A stretch of 64,000 nt of DNA. Origin: an uncultured Candidatus Saccharibacteria bacterium. GTDB lineage: Bacteria > Patescibacteriota > Saccharimonadia > CAILAD01 > BJGX01. The stretch's first letter is position 1. Every line of letters begins with the position of its first letter. Below the pieces are notes generated by a model that saw nothing but the letters and a program-made list of their open reading frames with translations, did not search any database and had not been told where the DNA came from. A program made the translations under genes and the position numbers. The DNA is taken from contig CAYRNO010000001.1 of assembly GCA_964425715.1 (NCBI GenBank), positions 10,645 through 74,644 of the forward strand, written 5' to 3'. Below are positions 40,087 to 47,460 of the stretch, piece by piece.

Positions 40087-40548
40087 ATCGATAGAGCTTA
40101 TGTTGAATATGATAGCCTTATAATATGCAGTAGAGTTAATAATGTCAACAAACTACATAATAATTGACAATAATAACAATTGAGTGTAAAATATTCCTAA
40201 TGGGGCTGACTAGCTTTGACATAGAGAACATTAAAATATATTTGCGAGCCGGGCTGGAATGCACGTTAGCCGTTCCAAAAACTTAAGTGCAAATACACTT
40301 ATTAGTAAGATAAAAGCAGCGTTTACGTTGCCAACTCTTGCACCAGCATACGCTTAATTGAGTATGCCGTCTAACTTACTGACACCAGATAGATAAGTAG
40401 GCGCCAATTATCTGGTTGCTACATATTCGCCTAGTGCCGAAGATGGGTAAGCTCATAGTACTAGGAAGAGATCTACTTGTTTGTTGATTTATAGAGTAGA
40501 TATCTTTGAAAACAATTTCAAATCAACTATGCTTGTAGACGATATATA

Positions 40549-42093
40549 TTAATTCTTCATGGACGAGGGTGCGATTCCCTCCAGCTCCACCAAAAGGGAC
40601 TTTCGAGTAATTCGGAGGTCTTTTTTGTTTGGGGTCAACCTGTACAGGGTGCATATTGAGTTAGTGCTAACTTTTTTATTTGAGTTGAAGATAATTCCAT
40701 CAGGGAATAGCAATTGTTGGCACAAAGTGCGTTCATCTTGATTTAGTTCCCACCAATCTGTTTTTAATCTGTTACTATATTCCAGCCCAAACTTAACAAA
40801 TTCTACCAAATCCCCCTGTAGTTTATTTGAATCTGCTATTTGTTTAGATAACTCGCTAATCTCTAGCTGTATCTTTCTAATTTCAGCCTGTATACCGTCT
40901 TTGAACTCAGACGTCACTTTAGCAAGTTCTCTATATAGCCCAGACAACTCTATTTCGAGCGATTCTCGCTGCCTTTGAAGCGTTTTAAGACTTCTGATGT
41001 TATCTTGTTGCTTCTTATTCCAAACAGTTGCTAAAGCTCTCATAAAGTCTTTCTGTTGAGCATTTTGATAATTAACTTGCAGTAGTATATTAGTAATAGC
41101 CTTGTGTACATCTTGTCGATGATATTGTTTACCACATTTTCTGCAACGATACTTTGGGTAAAACTTACCATTACCATTACCTTGATTTGAACCTGTAAAC
41201 TTAGCTCCTGGTTGACAGTCGTGAATTAGTAATTTGTTCATTGGAAAGTTGGGGTTGTACTGCAATTTTCTAAAAGACCGAATCTTACGACCATTTATTA
41301 CCTCAACTATACTATCGTGTTCCTCCTTTGAAATCATTGGTGTGTGTAAACCATTCTCGCACCTTGCATTCACTTGTTTACCCACAACTATAATGCCGCA
41401 ATAGTAAGGGTTCACTATAAACTTTACGAACTTATCTATCTTCATTGGTGTTCTGCCGTTACTAATGAATTCGGTTTTGTTGAGTTGCTTTAGTGCTTCA
41501 GATGGTGTAGCCATCCTGTTTGCGATGCTTTTTAGTGCTTGTTGAAAAGGTACTCCCTGAATCGGGTGGAAAACGTGTACTCCTGGCTTATCGCTATGCA
41601 TATAACCTGGCAAAGGTGGGAAAGTATAACGACCTTCTTTGACTGCAGCCCTATGACCAGTAACTGACTTTCTTTGTCTTTCCTCGTTACTGCTTTCAGC
41701 AGCAAAGTATTTCATAAATTTCATAAGCTTAGCTGTCATATCGTCAGTGTTTAGTTCAGGGTCAGAGGCATACCACACTTTTACACCAACCATTCGAAAT
41801 TCAACCTCAAAATGAAAAGCTTCATCTACAGACCTCATAAACCTATCAGGTTCGTCAACGATAAGATATTTGACTGCTCGATTTTTTCTGCAAAAATCTA
41901 ACATTTCTCTAATGTCTCTACGCTTAACATTTGTTCCTGCTTTACTCGAAACATCGCCAGACCATTCTTTAATAATCTCAGCATCAAGTTCTTGAGACGC
42001 TCTCATAACAGAACTCTGTTGTCTGTTTAGGCTATTGCTTTGCTTCTGTTCAGCAGTCGAGACCCTACAGTTTGCTATTGCTTTTATTTTCAC
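40549..42093 (-). CDS. large serine recombinase (phage-integrase type)
   Basis: 514 aa; N-terminal catalytic block IANCRVSTAEQ (serine recombinase RxSTxxQ); zinc ribbon CRKCGKQYH; C-terminal coiled coil. Confidence 0.85.
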   Translation of the reverse strand: MKIKAIANCRVSTAEQKQSNSLNRQQSSVMRASQELDAEIIKEWSGDVSSKAGTNVKRRDIREMLDFCRKNRAVKYLIVDEPDRFMRSVDEAFHFEVEFRMVGVKVWYASDPELNTDDMTAKLMKFMKYFAAESSNEERQRKSVTGHRAAVKEGRYTFPPLPGYMHSDKPGVHVFHPIQGVPFQQALKSIANRMATPSEALKQLNKTEFISNGRTPMKIDKFVKFIVNPYYCGIIVVGKQVNARCENGLHTPMISKEEHDSIVEVINGRKIRSFRKLQYNPNFPMNKLLIHDCQPGAKFTGSNQGNGNGKFYPKYRCRKCGKQYHRQDVHKAITNILLQVNYQNAQQKDFMRALATVWNKKQQDNIRSLKTLQRQRESLEIELSGLYRELAKVTSEFKDGIQAEIRKIQLEISELSKQIADSNKLQGDLVEFVKFGLEYSNRLKTDWWELNQDERTLCQQLLFPDGIIFNSNKKVSTNSICTLYRLTPNKKDLRITRKSLLVELEGIAPSSMKN

Positions 42094-42117
42094 AAACTAT
42101 CTCCAAAAACCATAAAA

Positions 42118-42164
42118 GGCAGTCTCTGGGATACGTCGTTATGACACGACAAACAGAGACTGCC
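42118..42164 (-). terminator. 11-bp perfect inverted repeat (GGCAGTCTCTG ... CAGAGACTGCC) between the cargo genes and the recombinase
   Basis: Perfect 11-bp stem with a 25-nt loop that is itself partly self-complementary; on the minus strand it is followed by a U-rich tract, so it likely terminates the 92-aa gene upstream of the recombinase. Confidence 0.45.
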
Positions 42165-42334
42165 ATTTATAAATTCTAGATTAAGAACCAAGCTTGTCAT
42201 AATTTGTATCCTTAACCATTATCTTATTTTTACCTGTTGAATGCAACTTTTTTATATTAATATATCTTCCATATAAGAAGTTTGCCCACTCAGTTAACTC
42301 CTCTTGACTTAAAGGTTTTTGTTTAGTTTTGGCA

Positions 42335-42613
42335 TTACTTTTCACTAAAACTCAACCCTTCAATAATATCATCTGCAATACTTTGTATTTTATCCACTAA
42401 CTCAGCTGATTTGAGCCGTATTTCAGCCTTGTTTGAGACATTAACAATATACTCAGCTGTTTCTGTTAAAACACGGCATTCAAATAGTCCTAATACAGCT
42501 TTTTCTAAGGTAGGGTAGTAGCCATCGGTATTCCATTGAGAGCCAGCTTGTTTCTGTACCATATAGCCGTGCAGGTAACTTTTTATTCGATAGTGTTTGT
42601 ATCTGATAGTCAT
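42335..42613 (-). CDS. hypothetical protein (island cargo)
   Basis: 92 aa ORF; no recognisable motif. Confidence 0.35.
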   Translation of the reverse strand: MTIRYKHYRIKSYLHGYMVQKQAGSQWNTDGYYPTLEKAVLGLFECRVLTETAEYIVNVSNKAEIRLKSAELVDKIQSIADDIIEGLSFSEK

Positions 42614-42673
42614 ATACCAAGACTACCAATGGAGTCTATAGGTGTATAACCAGTTATCTACCTATGTTGCTGG

Positions 42674-43501
42674 TTAGACATCTATCTTATTTTGTTGCTT
42701 AATAAATCTATCTGCAAGTTTTTGGAGGTTTACATATGACAAATCTAAACTTGAAGTATCTAGGTCTGCATATTCTTCTGCTAGTTTTGCCTCAACTGTT
42801 CTCCAGGTATTATATTTGCTTTCATTCTTCAAGAGCCAAGCCATTTGTCCAATCTTAAGGTTAAGGGGGTCAATACCTACCTTTGGCTTAGTTGGCAATT
42901 GGCTTAATGCCTTATCTATTTGTGACTTGTTGTCATCCAGGTACTTTTTTATTCTAGAGATAGAAGTTCTGTAGTTAAAATATATTAGCGGTGTATACAG
43001 ATAGTTTTTTGCATACGATTTTTCGATACTAGACTTTATGAGTCTACCTTTAATGCCTTTGAGTGGTCCTGGTGGTATATATAATCCAAGCGGTTGGTCT
43101 GGAGGTATAGGGAGGGTGTGAGTTAATATTACAACTTCTATAGAAAATACCCAATTTCTAGGAAGTTTATATCTGCTAGCTAGCCACTCTGCCCAACCTT
43201 TTGTGCCATATTCAAATTCTTTATTTGCTGTATGAACAAATTCTACAAGCTTTTCTAGGTTATTTTGCTTTGGGAAACTGTATAATTTTTTCATTTTAAG
43301 CTTGTTACGAATCCTGTCGAGCTGGTCATAAAAGCTATCACACCAAGATAAAACCTCAGCTAACTTATAATCCGACAAATCATAGCTGTTTTTAGAATAG
43401 CCAGGCAAATAAGTTATTTCAAAATCCCTGTCGTTATCTAGACTTTTGATTGATGAGTCATTCATATTAACTAATATACAGCTTAATTGTCTAATAGGCA
43501 C
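42674..43501 (-). CDS. hypothetical protein (island cargo)
   Basis: 275 aa ORF; no recognisable motif; the start may be the internal Met (MNDSSIK). Confidence 0.35.
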   Translation of the reverse strand: MPIRQLSCILVNMNDSSIKSLDNDRDFEITYLPGYSKNSYDLSDYKLAEVLSWCDSFYDQLDRIRNKLKMKKLYSFPKQNNLEKLVEFVHTANKEFEYGTKGWAEWLASRYKLPRNWVFSIEVVILTHTLPIPPDQPLGLYIPPGPLKGIKGRLIKSSIEKSYAKNYLYTPLIYFNYRTSISRIKKYLDDNKSQIDKALSQLPTKPKVGIDPLNLKIGQMAWLLKNESKYNTWRTVEAKLAEEYADLDTSSLDLSYVNLQKLADRFIKQQNKIDV

Positions 43502-43915
43502 AGCGTAACAAATATGTTTTTGTAAGTAGTTATACAGGTGTAGTCAGTGTATACACAGTATCGTAATTTCACACAGCCATTTATCAACTCAAAGGATACC
43601 TACAAACAACAAACTATATTATATATATCAAAGCATAGTGTCTTTGTTAGAGAGTAAAACAGGGGATATACCACCTGTATAGTTAAGCAATGTTAAGTAA
43701 AAGTAACTACAAAGCAAGTTAAACAAGTAGCCTTACATATTCTTGTAGCCATTTGTATTGCTACTCTGGACATATTCAGATAACCATTTATCGCTTCACA
43801 TATACAAAAATTATATATATAAACTCGGTTTGCCTATCAAGACACTGGTATATATGCCTATATGAGCCTGTATCTGTATATTAAGATATGCCCTAGAAAC
43901 TTCTTTTCTATATAT

Positions 43916-44086
43916 TTATAACTTTGGGAGTAGCTTTTCAGCCTTTAGTTTACTGAGGGGTGTGTCTTTGAGTTGTTGGAGTTTAGCGAATATCTTTTTG
44001 GCTCCAACAGGTGTGTCGGCATAGACAACTATCTGGGTTAACTCTTTTTTATCTTTAAGCCAGACATTGTAAAAGTATTTTGTCAT
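43916..44086 (-). CDS. small hypothetical protein (56 aa), tightly packed behind the 174-aa gene
   Basis: Hand-translated: MTKYFYNVWLKDKKELTQIVVYADTPVGAKKIFAKLQQLKDTPLSKLKAEKLLPKL; its ATG lies 3 nt after the stop of the upstream gene; below the 60-aa cut-off of the ORF track. Confidence 0.3.
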   Translation of the reverse strand: MTKYFYNVWLKDKKELTQIVVYADTPVGAKKIFAKLQQLKDTPLSKLKAEKLLPKL

Positions 44087-44089
44087 AAG

Positions 44090-44614
44090 CTACCTAACGA
44101 GTTCGTGTTGTTCCATCCATTCAATTAGAGGTTTGCATATAGCCTCGGTAAGTAGCATATTAAGCTTTAACATAAAAATCATACTACTACTAGGTTCACT
44201 TATTATTTTTGACTTTTCAGTTAGTAGTAAAGTTACTAAATCAGAATTCACCCCATCGTAACCTGCCAGTGGGTTCGTATCAACATCTGAATAATAGGTA
44301 TATATCTGGATAAATTCAATTACTAATTTGTATATTACTTTTCCCACATCGTCTTTGATAAATAAATCTTTAATATATTGTTCTATCGTATTATACGAAG
44401 GTTCACCATATTGATTTTTAACTACAGTCAGCTTAATCGATACTAAATACGCCCATAAACAATTTTTAATTCTATTATTATTATGGAGTTTTGCATCAGG
44501 GTCTGCTTCCTGAATAAGCCTAATAATTACCTCTGAATAAGTATCAATTGATTTATAAGATTCGTTGTATATATAAGTCGCAACAGAGCTCTCAGTTATT
44601 TCTTTCTTTTTCAT
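44090..44614 (-). CDS. hypothetical protein (island cargo)
   Basis: 174 aa; start overlaps the stop of the upstream membrane protein gene. Confidence 0.35.
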   Translation of the reverse strand: MKKKEITESSVATYIYNESYKSIDTYSEVIIRLIQEADPDAKLHNNNRIKNCLWAYLVSIKLTVVKNQYGEPSYNTIEQYIKDLFIKDDVGKVIYKLVIEFIQIYTYYSDVDTNPLAGYDGVNSDLVTLLLTEKSKIISEPSSSMIFMLKLNMLLTEAICKPLIEWMEQHELVR

Positions 44615-45315
44615 TAAGAACCCACTGCACCAGCAAGTATAAGATTTAAGATTGCAAACACAAAGATTATAGTCGTAATTACAACATAAACTTTTAGTGT
44701 ATTTATGACTGTTCTTTTTTTACCTTTGGGGTAAAATTTCTCGTGCCTCACCATATTGTAAAGACCACCCATTAATAGCCCAATGATTATAAATACCCCT
44801 ATTGCAAGTGCAGGTCCAATTATGTGACCACCCCAGCTGTAACTTTCATTTATAGAACCAACTGTAACGTTGTAAATTAGAGTAATAAAATAAGACATCA
44901 ATAGTAGAACTGAAAGGGTTATAGTATCCTTGTCGTTCTTCTTATCTTTCTTTGAAGTTTTATAGTTACTTTCTTTAGATAACTTTTCATCAAGCAATTC
45001 TGTAAAATAACCAGATATTAGCATAAATGGGGTGGTCATCAAGCTCATAGCGATAACTATTAAATAACCACCAATAACCACAAACAGCACAAAATGTAAA
45101 AAATTAGAGAAGAAAAGACCCCACGCTACATATAGATAATATATCCCGACTATAAAATACAAGATATTCATTACCACCACTGATAAACCATATATAGTTT
45201 TCATTACTGCAGCTTTCTGTAGAACTAGTGATATTAAGTAACCTATAAAGCAAATTATTGTCCAGATTAAAAGGTATAGAACAAAAATTACTAAAAAGTA
45301 GAATATTGGATGCAT
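44614..45315 (-). CDS. polytopic membrane protein (island cargo)
   Basis: 233 aa; about 6 hydrophobic helices with a K-rich cytoplasmic loop. Confidence 0.4.
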   Translation of the reverse strand: MHPIFYFLVIFVLYLLIWTIICFIGYLISLVLQKAAVMKTIYGLSVVVMNILYFIVGIYYLYVAWGLFFSNFLHFVLFVVIGGYLIVIAMSLMTTPFMLISGYFTELLDEKLSKESNYKTSKKDKKNDKDTITLSVLLLMSYFITLIYNVTVGSINESYSWGGHIIGPALAIGVFIIIGLLMGGLYNMVRHEKFYPKGKKRTVINTLKVYVVITTIIFVFAILNLILAGAVGS

Positions 45316-45345
45316 ATATCTCCCAATCTAGAAGCAACAGTATTT

Positions 45346-45900
45346 TTAATAAGACTCACAACCATATCCATCATAGTCGCCATCCAGCCTGTGTTTATCG
45401 TATCCATATACTTCAACTGTGTAGCCTATATCTGCACAATCAAGGTCGTATGATACGTTAGGTACACAACCAGAGTAGTTTGTGTCGCAGTTCGGAGGTG
45501 GGGGTGGTTGTTTTGTGCCTATTGCAGTTCTTTCTGAGACTGGCTGAGTTGTAACTGCCTCACTAGCTACTACACGGCTTATCTCAACTCCATTCTCTAG
45601 AGTAACTGTATATGTTGTAGTTTTCTCACCGTTTATACATCCTTGCGTGACATTTGATTTGCCAACCAGTAAGTTTGGGTCATTATACTGTTCCTTAGTA
45701 CAAGGTATAGGTGTTTTTGTAGTAGTAGTTGTTGTTTCTATTTTTTTGGTTTGTTCTGCGTTATCAGCCTTAGGGCTATTTGACTGATAATTCGAGGCAA
45801 ATGCAGCAACAGCAAACAGTGGCACTAGAGCAGAAAGAGCAATCAAGCCTAATCTGCTTTCTTTGGATAAACTCTTAAACCACTTTATTAACTTTTTCAT
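45346..45900 (-). CDS. secreted protein with Thr-rich linker and C-terminal Excalibur (Ca-binding, DxDxDGxxCE) domain
   Basis: 184 aa; signal peptide/anchor MKKLIKWFKSL...LFAVAAFA; TTTTTKTP linker; PPPPP; C-terminal LDGDYDGYGCE Excalibur motif. Confidence 0.55.
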   Translation of the reverse strand: MKKLIKWFKSLSKESRLGLIALSALVPLFAVAAFASNYQSNSPKADNAEQTKKIETTTTTTKTPIPCTKEQYNDPNLLVGKSNVTQGCINGEKTTTYTVTLENGVEISRVVASEAVTTQPVSERTAIGTKQPPPPPNCDTNYSGCVPNVSYDLDCADIGYTVEVYGYDKHRLDGDYDGYGCESY

Positions 45901-46216
45901 CTAATTCAACCTTTAATTCGATACTAGAGCATAATATTGCTTTTTGCAAGCATACGGTTATAGCTTAGTGTAATTCACTCCGTGCACCTCTATACATCCG
46001 TTAAGCTTGTATCTCACATATTGTGAATACAGTAACTCTTTCCAGTTGTTTACATTTTCAGAAATACTGTGCCAACTTTTATCTATTCGCTCCACCAAAA
46101 AACGATCAAGATTGAGACTTGGTCTTTTTTTGTGTCTAGATACCTCGAGCTATAGAGTCTTTCAGCAAGAATTAAACCAGACTATTATAGGTCTGGTTTT
46201 TTGATAGAAACGTATT

Positions 46217-47239
46217 TTATTGGGGTGGGATTGATCTAGGACGGAGCTTCATGAGCTCCCCCTTAAGGGTGTAGGCACTATTGGGCACATCCCAGTGGCA
46301 CATATCACGAACTGGGCAAGACCCACAAAATTGTCTATATCTCTCAAGTTCAGACCCGCTCCAGATGGGTATGTAAGCGGGAGTCTCAGTCTGGCGAGCA
46401 CGATATTGTCTAGACAGGGTTCTATTGCCGGGGTTCTTGGCGCAACCCACGCTAGAAAGCAGCCAGACGGCATTACAGAGCTCTATAGGGCTTATGTTGT
46501 GACGATTGCAGTAATCGGCGAACAAACCCCTTAGGACCGTCTGAAGGTGCTCAGAATAGATATTTCTACCTATTGATTCGCCAGAGAACTTCACCATCTC
46601 AGTCTCTATGCATACTCGCATGACATGAAAGTCGATCGGTATTGGGAAGGGGATTGGCTCGATTATATCTGTAGCTATGTAGAAATACATAAGCATACTG
46701 ACCATCTTATACTGGAAACCCATAAACCCCTGTCGGTGAGTAAACTCTTTGGTCTTTCTGTGCCGTCTGCTCTTATTGCGAATACGATCACAGGCTTCCT
46801 CATAGCTCTCTACACCGACGAATATTTTGCGAGGGTCTCCATCATACCAATCCAACAATCTTTGAGCGTTCTCAATCCAATGTGGCGGAGCGGATCTCTT
46901 GAGGTATCTCAGATCAACTCTTTCTAATGATGCGGTGATAGATTCTGGTTTGATCCTAACTATCTCATAAGGATCAAATAACCTTGGCCTTCTGGAGTAA
47001 AGACGAGCAAGCTGTTTGGCGGCGGTGTTACTCTTAATACCGCCTTTCATATATAGACATAGTACAAATAGAAACATTGCATGCTCGACGGAGCCCAACT
47101 CCAATCTTCTTTCGAGATCAGCCACTTCATGAGGTAATTGGGTGGTCGGAAGACCATATATAAATCTCCCGTCTCGGTATGAATCCAAGAGAGTTCCTAG
47201 GACTTTCTCAACGCGATCATGGTCGACTGTGATCTGCAC
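46217..47239 (-). CDS. endonuclease III-like HhH-GPD family DNA glycosylase homolog (divergent), GC-rich foreign gene
   Basis: 340 aa; PIDFHVMRVCIETEM matches the Nth PVDTHIFRVCNRTQ active-site helix; C-terminal C-x2-C-x5-C (CGSCPVRDMC) resembles the last three Cys of the EndoIII [4Fe-4S] loop; GC about 50% against about 35% background. Confidence 0.45.
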   Translation of the reverse strand: MQITVDHDRVEKVLGTLLDSYRDGRFIYGLPTTQLPHEVADLERRLELGSVEHAMFLFVLCLYMKGGIKSNTAAKQLARLYSRRPRLFDPYEIVRIKPESITASLERVDLRYLKRSAPPHWIENAQRLLDWYDGDPRKIFVGVESYEEACDRIRNKSRRHRKTKEFTHRQGFMGFQYKMVSMLMYFYIATDIIEPIPFPIPIDFHVMRVCIETEMVKFSGESIGRNIYSEHLQTVLRGLFADYCNRHNISPIELCNAVWLLSSVGCAKNPGNRTLSRQYRARQTETPAYIPIWSGSELERYRQFCGSCPVRDMCHWDVPNSAYTLKGELMKLRPRSIPPQ

Positions 47240-47460
47240 AACAGCTCCTATCGTAAGGTACTAATATAATTATTGATTAATAATAAATGTATTGCAATAA
47301 ATCTATAGGACAAAGAATAAAGTCTAGTATTTTAGAAGTATTTATGCTATACTATATCTCAAGTAGGTTTCTTTCTTTAGCGCTCTTGATTCAAGATGAC
47401 ATAGCAAGAATAGAAGTGGTCGTCCTGCTCCAAGAGAATTAAAAGGAAAAAATAATCTAG

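Follow-up and report, generated by a model that had tools for sequence, protein, structure and literature searches.

A probable DNA glycosylase beside, not within, an ssrA island of Candidatus Saccharibacteria, and its uncurated family in the Patescibacteria

How does a gene that resembles those of DNA glycosylases, and that differs in composition from its neighbors, come to lie close to the border of a genomic island in an uncultured Candidatus Saccharibacteria bacterium, and what is its product likely to do? The gene is found in a stretch of 64,000 nt (assembly GCA_964425715.1, contig CAYRNO010000001.1, positions 10,645 to 74,644 of the forward strand), which is called the window below and in whose numbering coordinates are given. 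A first-pass annotation, made from the sequence alone, regarded the gene as a divergent endonuclease III-like glycosylase carried by the island. We consider it probable, at roughly 0.6, that this is a chromosomal gene for a functional HhH-GPD superfamily DNA glycosylase, which belongs to a distinct, uncurated family of the Patescibacteria (Candidate Phyla Radiation, CPR), acts as a bifunctional base-excision glycosylase and apurinic/apyrimidinic (AP) lyase, is not cargo of the island and was gained laterally.

The open reading frame (ORF) was found exactly where it had first been placed, on the minus strand, and encodes a protein of 340 aa. Its GTG start codon is credible, since the N-terminus agrees with the N-termini of the homologs. 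The features that carry the argument are the following:

46217–47239, minus strand: glycosylase ORF, member of a Patescibacteria-wide HhH-GPD family with a predicted Fe-S site (ORF list, homologs, AlphaFold2, Foldseek, dN/dS)
46616–46729, minus strand: HhH-GPD core, residues 171–208, GFMGFQYK178MVSM...PFPIPID203FH205VMR208 (hhalign to Nth, HMMER to Pa-AGOG)
46298–46444, minus strand: predicted [4Fe-4S] site C266-X38-C305-X2-C308-X5-C314; the basic loop from ligand 1 to ligand 2 is expanded (conservation, alignment with Nth)
46463–46465, minus strand: Trp259, invariant, aligned to Trp222 of Pa-AGOG (alignments, conservation)
47057–47059, minus strand: Cys61, a fifth conserved cysteine, in the motif LC(Y/L)YM(R/K)GGI(K)S (conservation)

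The AlphaFold2 model of the encoded protein (the window protein), built on the family alignment, has a predicted local distance difference test score (pLDDT) of 92.7 and a predicted template modeling score (pTM) of 0.90. Its top Foldseek matches in the PDB were MUTYH (3N5N), endonuclease III (EndoIII, i.e., Nth; 1ORN) and MutY (1KG2), at E 1e-4 and a probability of 1.00; against these three structures and OGG2 (3KNT) the target template modeling (TM) scores were 0.59–0.72, with E-values of 1e-4 to 5e-4, and the root-mean-square deviation (RMSD) to EndoIII and E. coli MutY was 4.3–5.6 Å. Further matches, besides OGG2, were AGOG (1XQP, E 9.6e-3), the thymine glycosylase Mig (1KEA, E 1.1e-2) and MagIII, and the sole significant match in the BFVD library of viral structures was a haloviral endonuclease III (E 1.5e-6, target TM 0.74). 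The predicted structure is that of the superfamily, i.e., an all-alpha fold of two domains that can be laid over EndoIII, MutY or OGG2. Membership of the HhH-GPD superfamily, as originally proposed, is borne out by this fold match together with a catalytic Asp, a Lys at the position used by bifunctional enzymes and a four-Cys site of the EndoIII type.

These residues were located by aligning the family with E. coli Nth, using a query identical to PDB 2ABK across all 211 residues. The full-length hhalign comparison was made in local mode with low mact, with an Nth template of three sequences and without secondary-structure scoring; under these settings residues 6–320 aligned colinearly with Nth residues 2–209 at E 1.1e-3 and a probability of 20%, so that confidence in the full-length alignment is low, and a second run aligned residues 75 onward with Nth from residue 49. 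K178 fell on Nth K120 in two runs, GFQxK178MVSM standing opposite GVGRK120TANVV, and is the candidate for the Lys that would form a Schiff base. D203 fell on Nth D138, with PIPIDFHVMRVCIETE aligned to TIAVDTHIFRVCNRTQ, in agreement with the match to the active-site helix of Nth, catalytic Asp included, that had already been noticed. FCGSCPVRDMC (C305-X2-C308-X5-C314) stands opposite RCGSCIIEDLC of Nth, and C266, C305, C308, and C314 fall on Nth C187, C194, C197, and C203. The CxxCx5C motif had initially been read as three of the four EndoIII ligands; it does align as such, but the fourth ligand position is occupied as well, by the invariant C266, and a 38-residue insertion stands before C305 in place of the 6-residue Fe-S cluster loop of Nth, which makes the loop 32 residues longer. 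The four Cys are therefore, judging from this alignment and their conservation, predicted ligands of a [4Fe-4S] cluster.

Conservation was counted over 178 family sequences. K178 is present in all 178, D203 and each of C266, C305, C308, and C314 in 177, W259 in at least 99% and C61 in 97%. The hairpin of the window protein, G171-F-M-G174-F, departs from the canonical h-P-G-h-G, which is no bar to membership of the superfamily, the hairpin of AGOG being non-canonical too. A Gly/Pro-rich loop leading to an invariant catalytic Asp is present, PFPIPID203 being aligned on both Nth D138 and AGOG Asp172. C61 lies opposite Nth Val36 in the low-confidence part of the alignment, at the position of the catalytic Glu37 of MutY, which is a lead only.

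At the sequence level the nearest solved structure is that of an AGOG. A profile of 140 family sequences aligned with a stretch of 66 residues in Pa-AGOG (1XQO; E 5.6e-4), in which FPvPvD203fHvlR stands against FDIPIPVD172YRVAR, so that D203 falls on Asp172 and W259 on Trp222, as they also do with HMMER; K178 is one residue off Lys140 in an ungapped alignment. In AGOG, Lys140 and Asp172 are the catalytic residues, Trp222 stacks on the flipped 8-oxoguanine (8-oxoG), and the HhH motif is non-canonical with a long second helix (PMC3397491). The N-terminal halves of the family and of AGOG aligned in none of the searches made, and no counterparts emerged for Gln31 and Trp69, with which AGOG reads 8-oxoG. 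At family position 37, Q stands in 127 of the 178 sequences and H in 36, among them the window protein; this position can be equated with AGOG Gln31 by conjecture only.

The N-terminal 120 residues had been taken for an extension unrelated to Nth, a view that does not hold: this stretch is conserved throughout the family and aligns with Nth from residue 75 (and from residue 6 with low confidence). It is an integral part of the family fold, and the surplus length over Nth comes from several internal insertions.

Is this, then, a divergent member of a known family or a family of its own? The window protein was searched against the profile libraries of Pfam, NCBIfam, PADLOC, and PHROGs. In Pfam it matched AGOG (E 0.034, 14.0 bits; gathering cut-off 26.1), WhiB (E 0.095) and EndIII_4Fe-2S (E 6.8, 7.6 bits; cut-off 20.5), all weakly, and the WhiB and EndIII_4Fe-2S matches both map to the segment with the CX2CX5C motif. 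PF00730 (HhH-GPD) gave no match up to E 10, and the check suggested at the outset, a search with this profile and EndIII_4Fe-2S, thus came out negative apart from the match at E 6.8; NCBIfam returned no family. The AGOG profile was matched by 16 of 45 family members, with a best E-value of 4.7e-4. The designation EndoIII-like is apt as far as superfamily, K, D, and the four Cys are concerned, but the protein is not a divergent Nth, given that PF00730 and NCBIfam find nothing and that, of the curated families and solved structures, AGOG alone is related to it at the sequence level.

The family itself is large. A word-indexed search found 44 full-length homologs, and an exhaustive profile search raised this to 865 clusters at 50% identity; for 308 of these clusters E was below 1e-30. 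The resemblance to the Nth motifs is not due to chance, because it recurs in these 44 homologs and 865 clusters with at least 99% conservation of K178, D203, and the Cys ligands. In the species genomes of GTDB, relatives are encoded on 88 stretches, which come almost entirely from Patescibacteria, i.e., Saccharibacteria, Paceibacteria/Parcubacteria, and Zambryski-, Lipton-, Wolfe-, Kaiser-, Campbell-, Kerfeld-, and Falkowbacteria. Two members (L060, L062) occur on contigs of metagenome-assembled genomes labeled ‘Gammaproteobacteria’ and ‘Nanoarchaeia’, which may be binning or labeling errors or rare cases outside the Patescibacteria. The family member present in NCBI bears the name ‘hypothetical protein’, and two family members carry the JGI label ‘endonuclease III’. 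An ortholog with 99% protein identity is encoded at locus L003 (DAOLHK010000004, Candidatus Saccharibacteria), which assigns the window to the Saccharibacteria, and among the substitutions specific to the clade of the window only T324 stands out, being Y elsewhere in the family. The literature was searched for glycosylase families that are AGOG-like, have an Fe-S site or occur in CPR, and this one was not found to have been described. It is an uncurated, distinct family that is widespread across the Patescibacteria.

The gene is functional and under strong purifying selection. This follows from dN/dS ratios far below 1 (dN 0.00 and dS 0.12 against L003; dN 0.09 and dS 1.7 against the ortholog at locus L004) and from a protein identity (85% with L004, 80% with that of locus L001) above that of the products of the flanking housekeeping genes, the aldolase, SmpB, and arginyl-tRNA synthetase (ArgRS), which is 66–77%.

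If the assignment is correct, the predicted [4Fe-4S] domain (C266, C305, C308, C314), the enlarged basic loop and the non-canonical HhH hairpin would bind the DNA backbone, and the damaged base would swing out into a pocket whose walls are formed by W259 and further conserved residues. K178 would then be activated by D203 and would attack C1', and after formation of a Schiff base the strand would be cleaved by beta-elimination; this would be the bifunctional glycosylase/AP-lyase chemistry of EndoIII, OGG, and AGOG. Because of the affinities to AGOG and Nth, the most likely substrate, by analogy, is an oxidized base, either 8-oxoG or an oxidized pyrimidine.

The question whether the gene belongs to the island can be answered from the borders of that island and from a relative in which it is lacking. 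The features at the tmRNA (transfer-messenger RNA) gene, and between it and the glycosylase gene, are:

40202–40592, plus strand: tmRNA gene ssrA, the integration target (ARAGORN)
40584–40595, plus strand: proximal 12-nt repeat GCTCCACCAAAA, at the 3' end of the tmRNA gene (sequence search)
40549–42093, minus strand: ORF of a large serine recombinase (Pfam Resolvase, E 5e-17)
40596–46088, no strand: strain-specific island of ~5.5 kb, context only (repeats, absence from L003)
46089–46100, plus strand: distal 12-nt repeat GCTCCACCAAAA, marking the right-hand end of the island; the stop codon of the glycosylase gene is 117 nt away (sequence search)
46104–46124, plus strand: terminator hairpin beside the distal repeat (like the terminator 3' of the tmRNA gene in L003, L001, and L086)
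46174–46199, minus strand: terminator-like hairpin directly 3' of the glycosylase stop codon (counterpart 3' of the L001 and L003 orthologs)

The repeat GCTCCACCAAAA occurs exactly twice in the 64-kb window, where no copy is expected by chance. The recombinase ORF crosses the proximal copy and shares 44 nt with the end of the tmRNA gene, and six small ORFs follow up to 45900; one encodes a membrane protein of 233 aa and another a secreted protein of 184 aa with a G5 domain. L003 aligns at 97% over 55239–46167 of the window and resumes at 40600; it lacks 40601–46166 and retains the glycosylase gene, its terminator and the tmRNA gene, with a gap of 114 nt. Since the repeats end at 46100 and the island-free L003 has the gene, the glycosylase is a chromosomal gene, 117 nt outside the island, and the original view of it as island cargo is wrong. 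L001, with its ortholog of 80% protein identity, has the same order SmpB-aldolase-RRM-glycosylase as the window. The hairpin at 46104–46124 is probably the native ssrA terminator, displaced by the insertion, because a similar terminator is found 3' of the tmRNA gene in each of L003, L001, and L086.

Two further observations concern the ssrA site. L001 carries a different insert of 0.83 kb there (L001 3877–4745), with a GC-rich ORF of 162 aa that has no Pfam match, and the terminator types 3' of the CCA end of the tmRNA gene are swapped between L001 and the window (40593–40626, 46101–46135). The swapped terminators and differing inserts suggest repeated turnover of islands at this site.

The terminator-like hairpin at 46174–46199 has a possible counterpart upstream of the gene:

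47269–47297, minus strand: sigma-70-like promoter match TTGCAA-17-AATAAT, ~30 nt 5' of the GTG (consensus match only)

Sigma-70-like matches in this region are no more numerous than in shuffled sequence. The promoter-like site and the terminator hairpin on either side of the gene suggest a monocistronic unit.

The composition of the gene raises the matter of its origin. Its GC content is 46.4% and its GC at third codon positions (GC3) 0.48, as compared with a GC3 of 0.24–0.35 for the neighboring genes and a GC content of 36.2% for the whole window; the contrast with the host that had been pointed out is thus real in GC3, although the GC content is lower than the value of about 50% mentioned. 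In L003, L004, and L001 the gene likewise stands 7–11 GC points above its flanks, whereas in most other CPR genomes the GC content of the homolog follows that of the flanks (mean difference +2.5 points) and in several low-GC CPR genomes its GC3 is 0.27–0.31. The GC excess is therefore specific to the clade of the window. Three more distant relatives (L084–L086; aldolase 59–62% and tmRNA 75–85% identical to those of the window) have the gene order GT4 - tmRNA - slot - RRM - aldolase - SmpB - ArgRS without the glycosylase. Their slots (L084 5074–7001, L085 5403–7001, L086 1630–4588) contain an acyltransferase (PF01553) in two cases and a sugar transferase (PF02397) in one. Since L084–L086 have other genes there, the slot from ssrA to the RRM gene is variable, as expected near an integration hot spot. 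The clade-specific GC excess and the other genes in the slot of L084–L086 favor an older lateral gain: the ancestor of this subclade of the Saccharibacteria probably acquired the gene from a CPR donor with a higher GC content. Of the foreign origin first proposed, the atypical GC3 and the three distant syntenic relatives with other genes in the slot speak in its favor, but the gene did not arrive with the island. A decayed second copy of the tmRNA 3' end, i.e., a remnant of an older att site, was searched for beyond the gene and none was found.

In most of the family the C-terminus is of a kind that the window protein lacks. Typical C-termini are ...PPQxxLF, ...TLF or ...PLF (e.g., PPQLSLF*, PPQMSLF, PPQLILF; P0014–P0071, L006–L079). 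Q-x-x-[LIMF]-[FL] occurs within the last 25 residues of 59 of 177 members, and [LIMF]F within the last 12 residues of 95 of 177. The bacterial consensus for binding of the beta sliding clamp is QL[SD]LF/QxxLF, and the QxxLF of most relatives probably is, by its resemblance to this consensus, a tether to the clamp. The nearest relatives, P0001–P0013, end in ...PPQ* or similar without the tail, and the window protein, which ends in ...RPRSIPPQ*, has no clamp-binding pentapeptide at its C-terminus; in this protein and those nearest to it the motif has been lost.

The neighborhoods of the family were compared in 82 loci with a member. A chromosomal ParB/Spo0J is found near the gene in 21 of these, mostly adjoining it (e.g., L049 9083–10204, L038 9147–10355). 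A ‘glycosylase plus ParB-like nuclease’ module, suggested by a neighbor in 17–21 loci, was considered and rejected, since this neighbor is the ordinary chromosomal ParB/Spo0J (E 8e-35 to 1VZ0). SmpB lies within 8 kb in 11 loci from several CPR lineages, and a probable DHFR, so assigned from its sequence only, is a neighbor in six. The recurrence of ParB/Spo0J and SmpB suggests a loosely conserved neighborhood. Adjacency to tRNA or tmRNA genes as a general trait of the family was likewise discarded: 30 such genes in 60 loci are, by a rough estimate, about what chance would give for a 1-Mb genome.

Nuclease-like neighbors recur as well. A protein of ~250 aa resembling PD-(D/E)xK nucleases, with an invariant D...E-V-K...Q, is present in 15 of the 82 loci, mostly adjoining and in either orientation (e.g., L007 9136–9936, L008 3054–3854, L022 9311–10057), and has no sequence match in Pfam or the PDB. 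An HNH_3-like protein, also of ~250 aa and with a weak Pfam match, adjoins the gene in nine (e.g., L053 4396–5115, L054 9208–9909, L061 407–1198) and may be a free-standing homing-type nuclease. Seven of these nine proteins end in [I/V/C]-P-F, like the acidic C-terminal tip of SSB (...DDIPF). The ParB, PD-(D/E)xK-like, and HNH-like families are absent from the whole window. The context is of a housekeeping type and not one of defense.

Several findings weigh against the reading of the gene as a laterally gained DNA glycosylase. No curated profile is matched above its threshold (14 bits for AGOG against 26.1, and nothing for PF00730 or in NCBIfam), the hhalign probability against Nth is just 20%, owing to the three-sequence template and the lack of secondary-structure scoring, and in Foldseek Qng1 (DUF2419), a nucleotide glycosidase inactive on DNA, does about as well as MutY (E 1.4e-4). 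The window protein itself is without the clamp-motif tail. As for the lateral gain, GC3 is 0.47–0.49 in the window, L003, L004, and L001 alike, with flanking genes at 0.25–0.42, while the synonymous divergence of the window from L004 and from L001 has reached saturation (pS 0.67–0.82); a constant GC3 of ~0.48 would require that the donor was very rich in GC and amelioration ran in parallel, or else that a constraint specific to the gene exists. Moreover, in six or more CPR lineages unrelated to one another SmpB lies no farther than 8 kb from the gene, which allows an old position beside SmpB with subsequent loss in L084–L086 instead of a gain.

A more far-reaching version of the reading as a base-excision glycosylase is, in its entirety, doubtful. 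The family would be a fourth, CPR-specific type of OGG-like enzyme, in which a relative of AGOG, the first from bacteria, is joined to an Fe-S module of the EndoIII type whose loop is much enlarged, and which is tethered to the clamp by QxxLF; it would serve the repair of oxidized guanine in the reduced genomes of Patescibacteria, and its gene would move laterally among CPR, possibly aided by the free-standing HNH and PD-(D/E)xK nuclease genes that flank about a quarter of the loci. Lateral movement between CPR lineages would, if this holds, explain the foreign composition of the gene in the window. AGOG has been described as exclusively archaeal (PMC3397491).

It is rather unlikely that the enzyme acts instead on a base that is not damaged, either a modified or epigenetic one, as DME/ROS1 do, or a mismatched base or uracil, as do Mig and MBD4, perhaps together with the adjacent nucleases found elsewhere in CPR. 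DME/ROS1 and Mig-type enzymes use the same catalytic K/D pair and Fe-S architecture, Foldseek does find Mig (1KEA, E 1.1e-2), and nuclease-like neighbors are recurrent. The latter, however, occur in both orientations and are lacking here, which fits selfish free-standing genes better than an operon; neither in the window nor at the 82 loci was a gene for a methyltransferase or for base modification noticed next to it, and the nearest relative in sequence, AGOG, is a damage glycosylase.

Improbable, too, is an N-glycosidase like Qng1 that would act on free nucleosides or nucleotides in the salvage of queuosine or another base, much as this would suit the salvage-dependent lifestyle of CPR. The Foldseek match to Qng1 is as strong as that to MutY (E 1.4e-4, TM ~0.5 in both normalizations), and Qng1 has an important Lys and Asp, to judge from PDB entry names (K199C, D231N). 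The DUF2419 profile, however, had no match in the Pfam search up to E 10, and the RMSD is 6–13 Å as opposed to 4.3–5.6 Å for EndoIII and E. coli MutY. The window protein has, moreover, a four-Cys site of the EndoIII type, most of its family a clamp-like QxxLF tail, and similarity in sequence points to AGOG and Nth, both of which are DNA enzymes.

We give as little credence to the idea that the protein is simply the canonical Nth of this organism, very far diverged. This would account for the two members labeled ‘endonuclease III’ by JGI and for the colinear alignment with K, D, and the four Cys retained, but the protein finds no PF00730 or NCBIfam match, has GFxGF for LPGVG, 25 residues between K and D instead of 18, X38 instead of X6 and some 130 aa more, while the family is patchily distributed and absent from this locus in syntenic relatives.

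That the gene is cargo of the island, i.e., a glycosylase of a mobile element acting in anti-restriction, DNA modification or defense, is highly improbable even though it lies 117 nt from the border of the serine-recombinase island at ssrA, has an atypical GC3 and stands, in 24 of the 82 CPR loci, near a HNH-like or PD-(D/E)xK-like gene that mostly adjoins it: the gene lies outside the repeats, is present with its own terminator in the island-free L003 and in L001 and L004, is more conserved than the flanking housekeeping genes and has none of the three neighbor families in its window, and nothing points to the anti-restriction or defense role first envisaged, with no PADLOC family up to E 10, PHROG matches at chance level only and no relatives in the phage, plasmid, and IMG/VR viral-contig collections searched.

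For the window, the reading of a chromosomal base-excision glycosylase means that a conserved gene of the repair type adjoins a hot spot of integration and is neither island cargo nor a defense effector. Beyond the window, CPR/Patescibacteria have tiny genomes and a poorly known repertoire of DNA repair, and here a family of 865 clusters matches no curated model. It joins an active-site sequence like that of AGOG to an Fe-S site like that of EndoIII but of unusual spacing, and to a probable clamp-binding tail. The family falls outside both Nth and AGOG as these are delimited by their profiles and yet has active-site features of both, and a conventional chemistry is to be expected of it. Should biochemical work confirm the reading, the family would represent a new branch of the HhH-GPD glycosylases and a new test case for the role of the loop of the Fe-S cluster.

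How, finally, does the family compare with known systems? With Qng1 (DUF2419; 7UGK, 7U07) it shares a size of ~320–340 aa and a glycosylase-like fold with a Lys/Asp pair, at the Foldseek E-value and TM score given above. It differs in that no profile match was obtained and the RMSD is large, and Qng1, which acts on a free nucleotide (queuosine-5'-monophosphate) and not on DNA, has neither the Fe-S Cys nor the clamp motif. In EndoIII and MutY the Fe-S loop contacts DNA, and Qng1 is not known to have such a cluster. AGOG (PF09171; 1XQO, 1XQP) is the only curated family and solved structure that can be detected by sequence. Both have the motif FPIPVD-(F/Y)-(H/R)V-R at Asp172, a Trp at position 222 of AGOG (W259) and a non-canonical HhH with a long second helix. 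In contrast to the family, AGOG is not known to have an Fe-S cluster; the score of the window protein remains below the gathering threshold, only the C-terminal half aligns, and the structural match is weaker than that to EndoIII (E 9.6e-3, TM 0.39 and 0.50). From Nth the family differs by its GFxGF hairpin instead of LPGVG, by the 25 residues from K to D instead of 18, by the X38 that follows the first Cys where Nth has C-X6-C-X2-C-X5-C, by the ~130 additional residues in several insertions, by the extra conserved C61, by the QxxLF tail of most members and by the lack of a match to an Nth or HhH-GPD profile. Nevertheless, Nth and MutY (2ABK, 1ORN, 1KG2, 3N5N) provide the best structural match and a colinear alignment in which all four Fe-S Cys are aligned, and with Nth the family shares a Lys at the position of K120, the catalytic Asp in an xVDxHxxRV helix and the CGSCxxxxxC motif.

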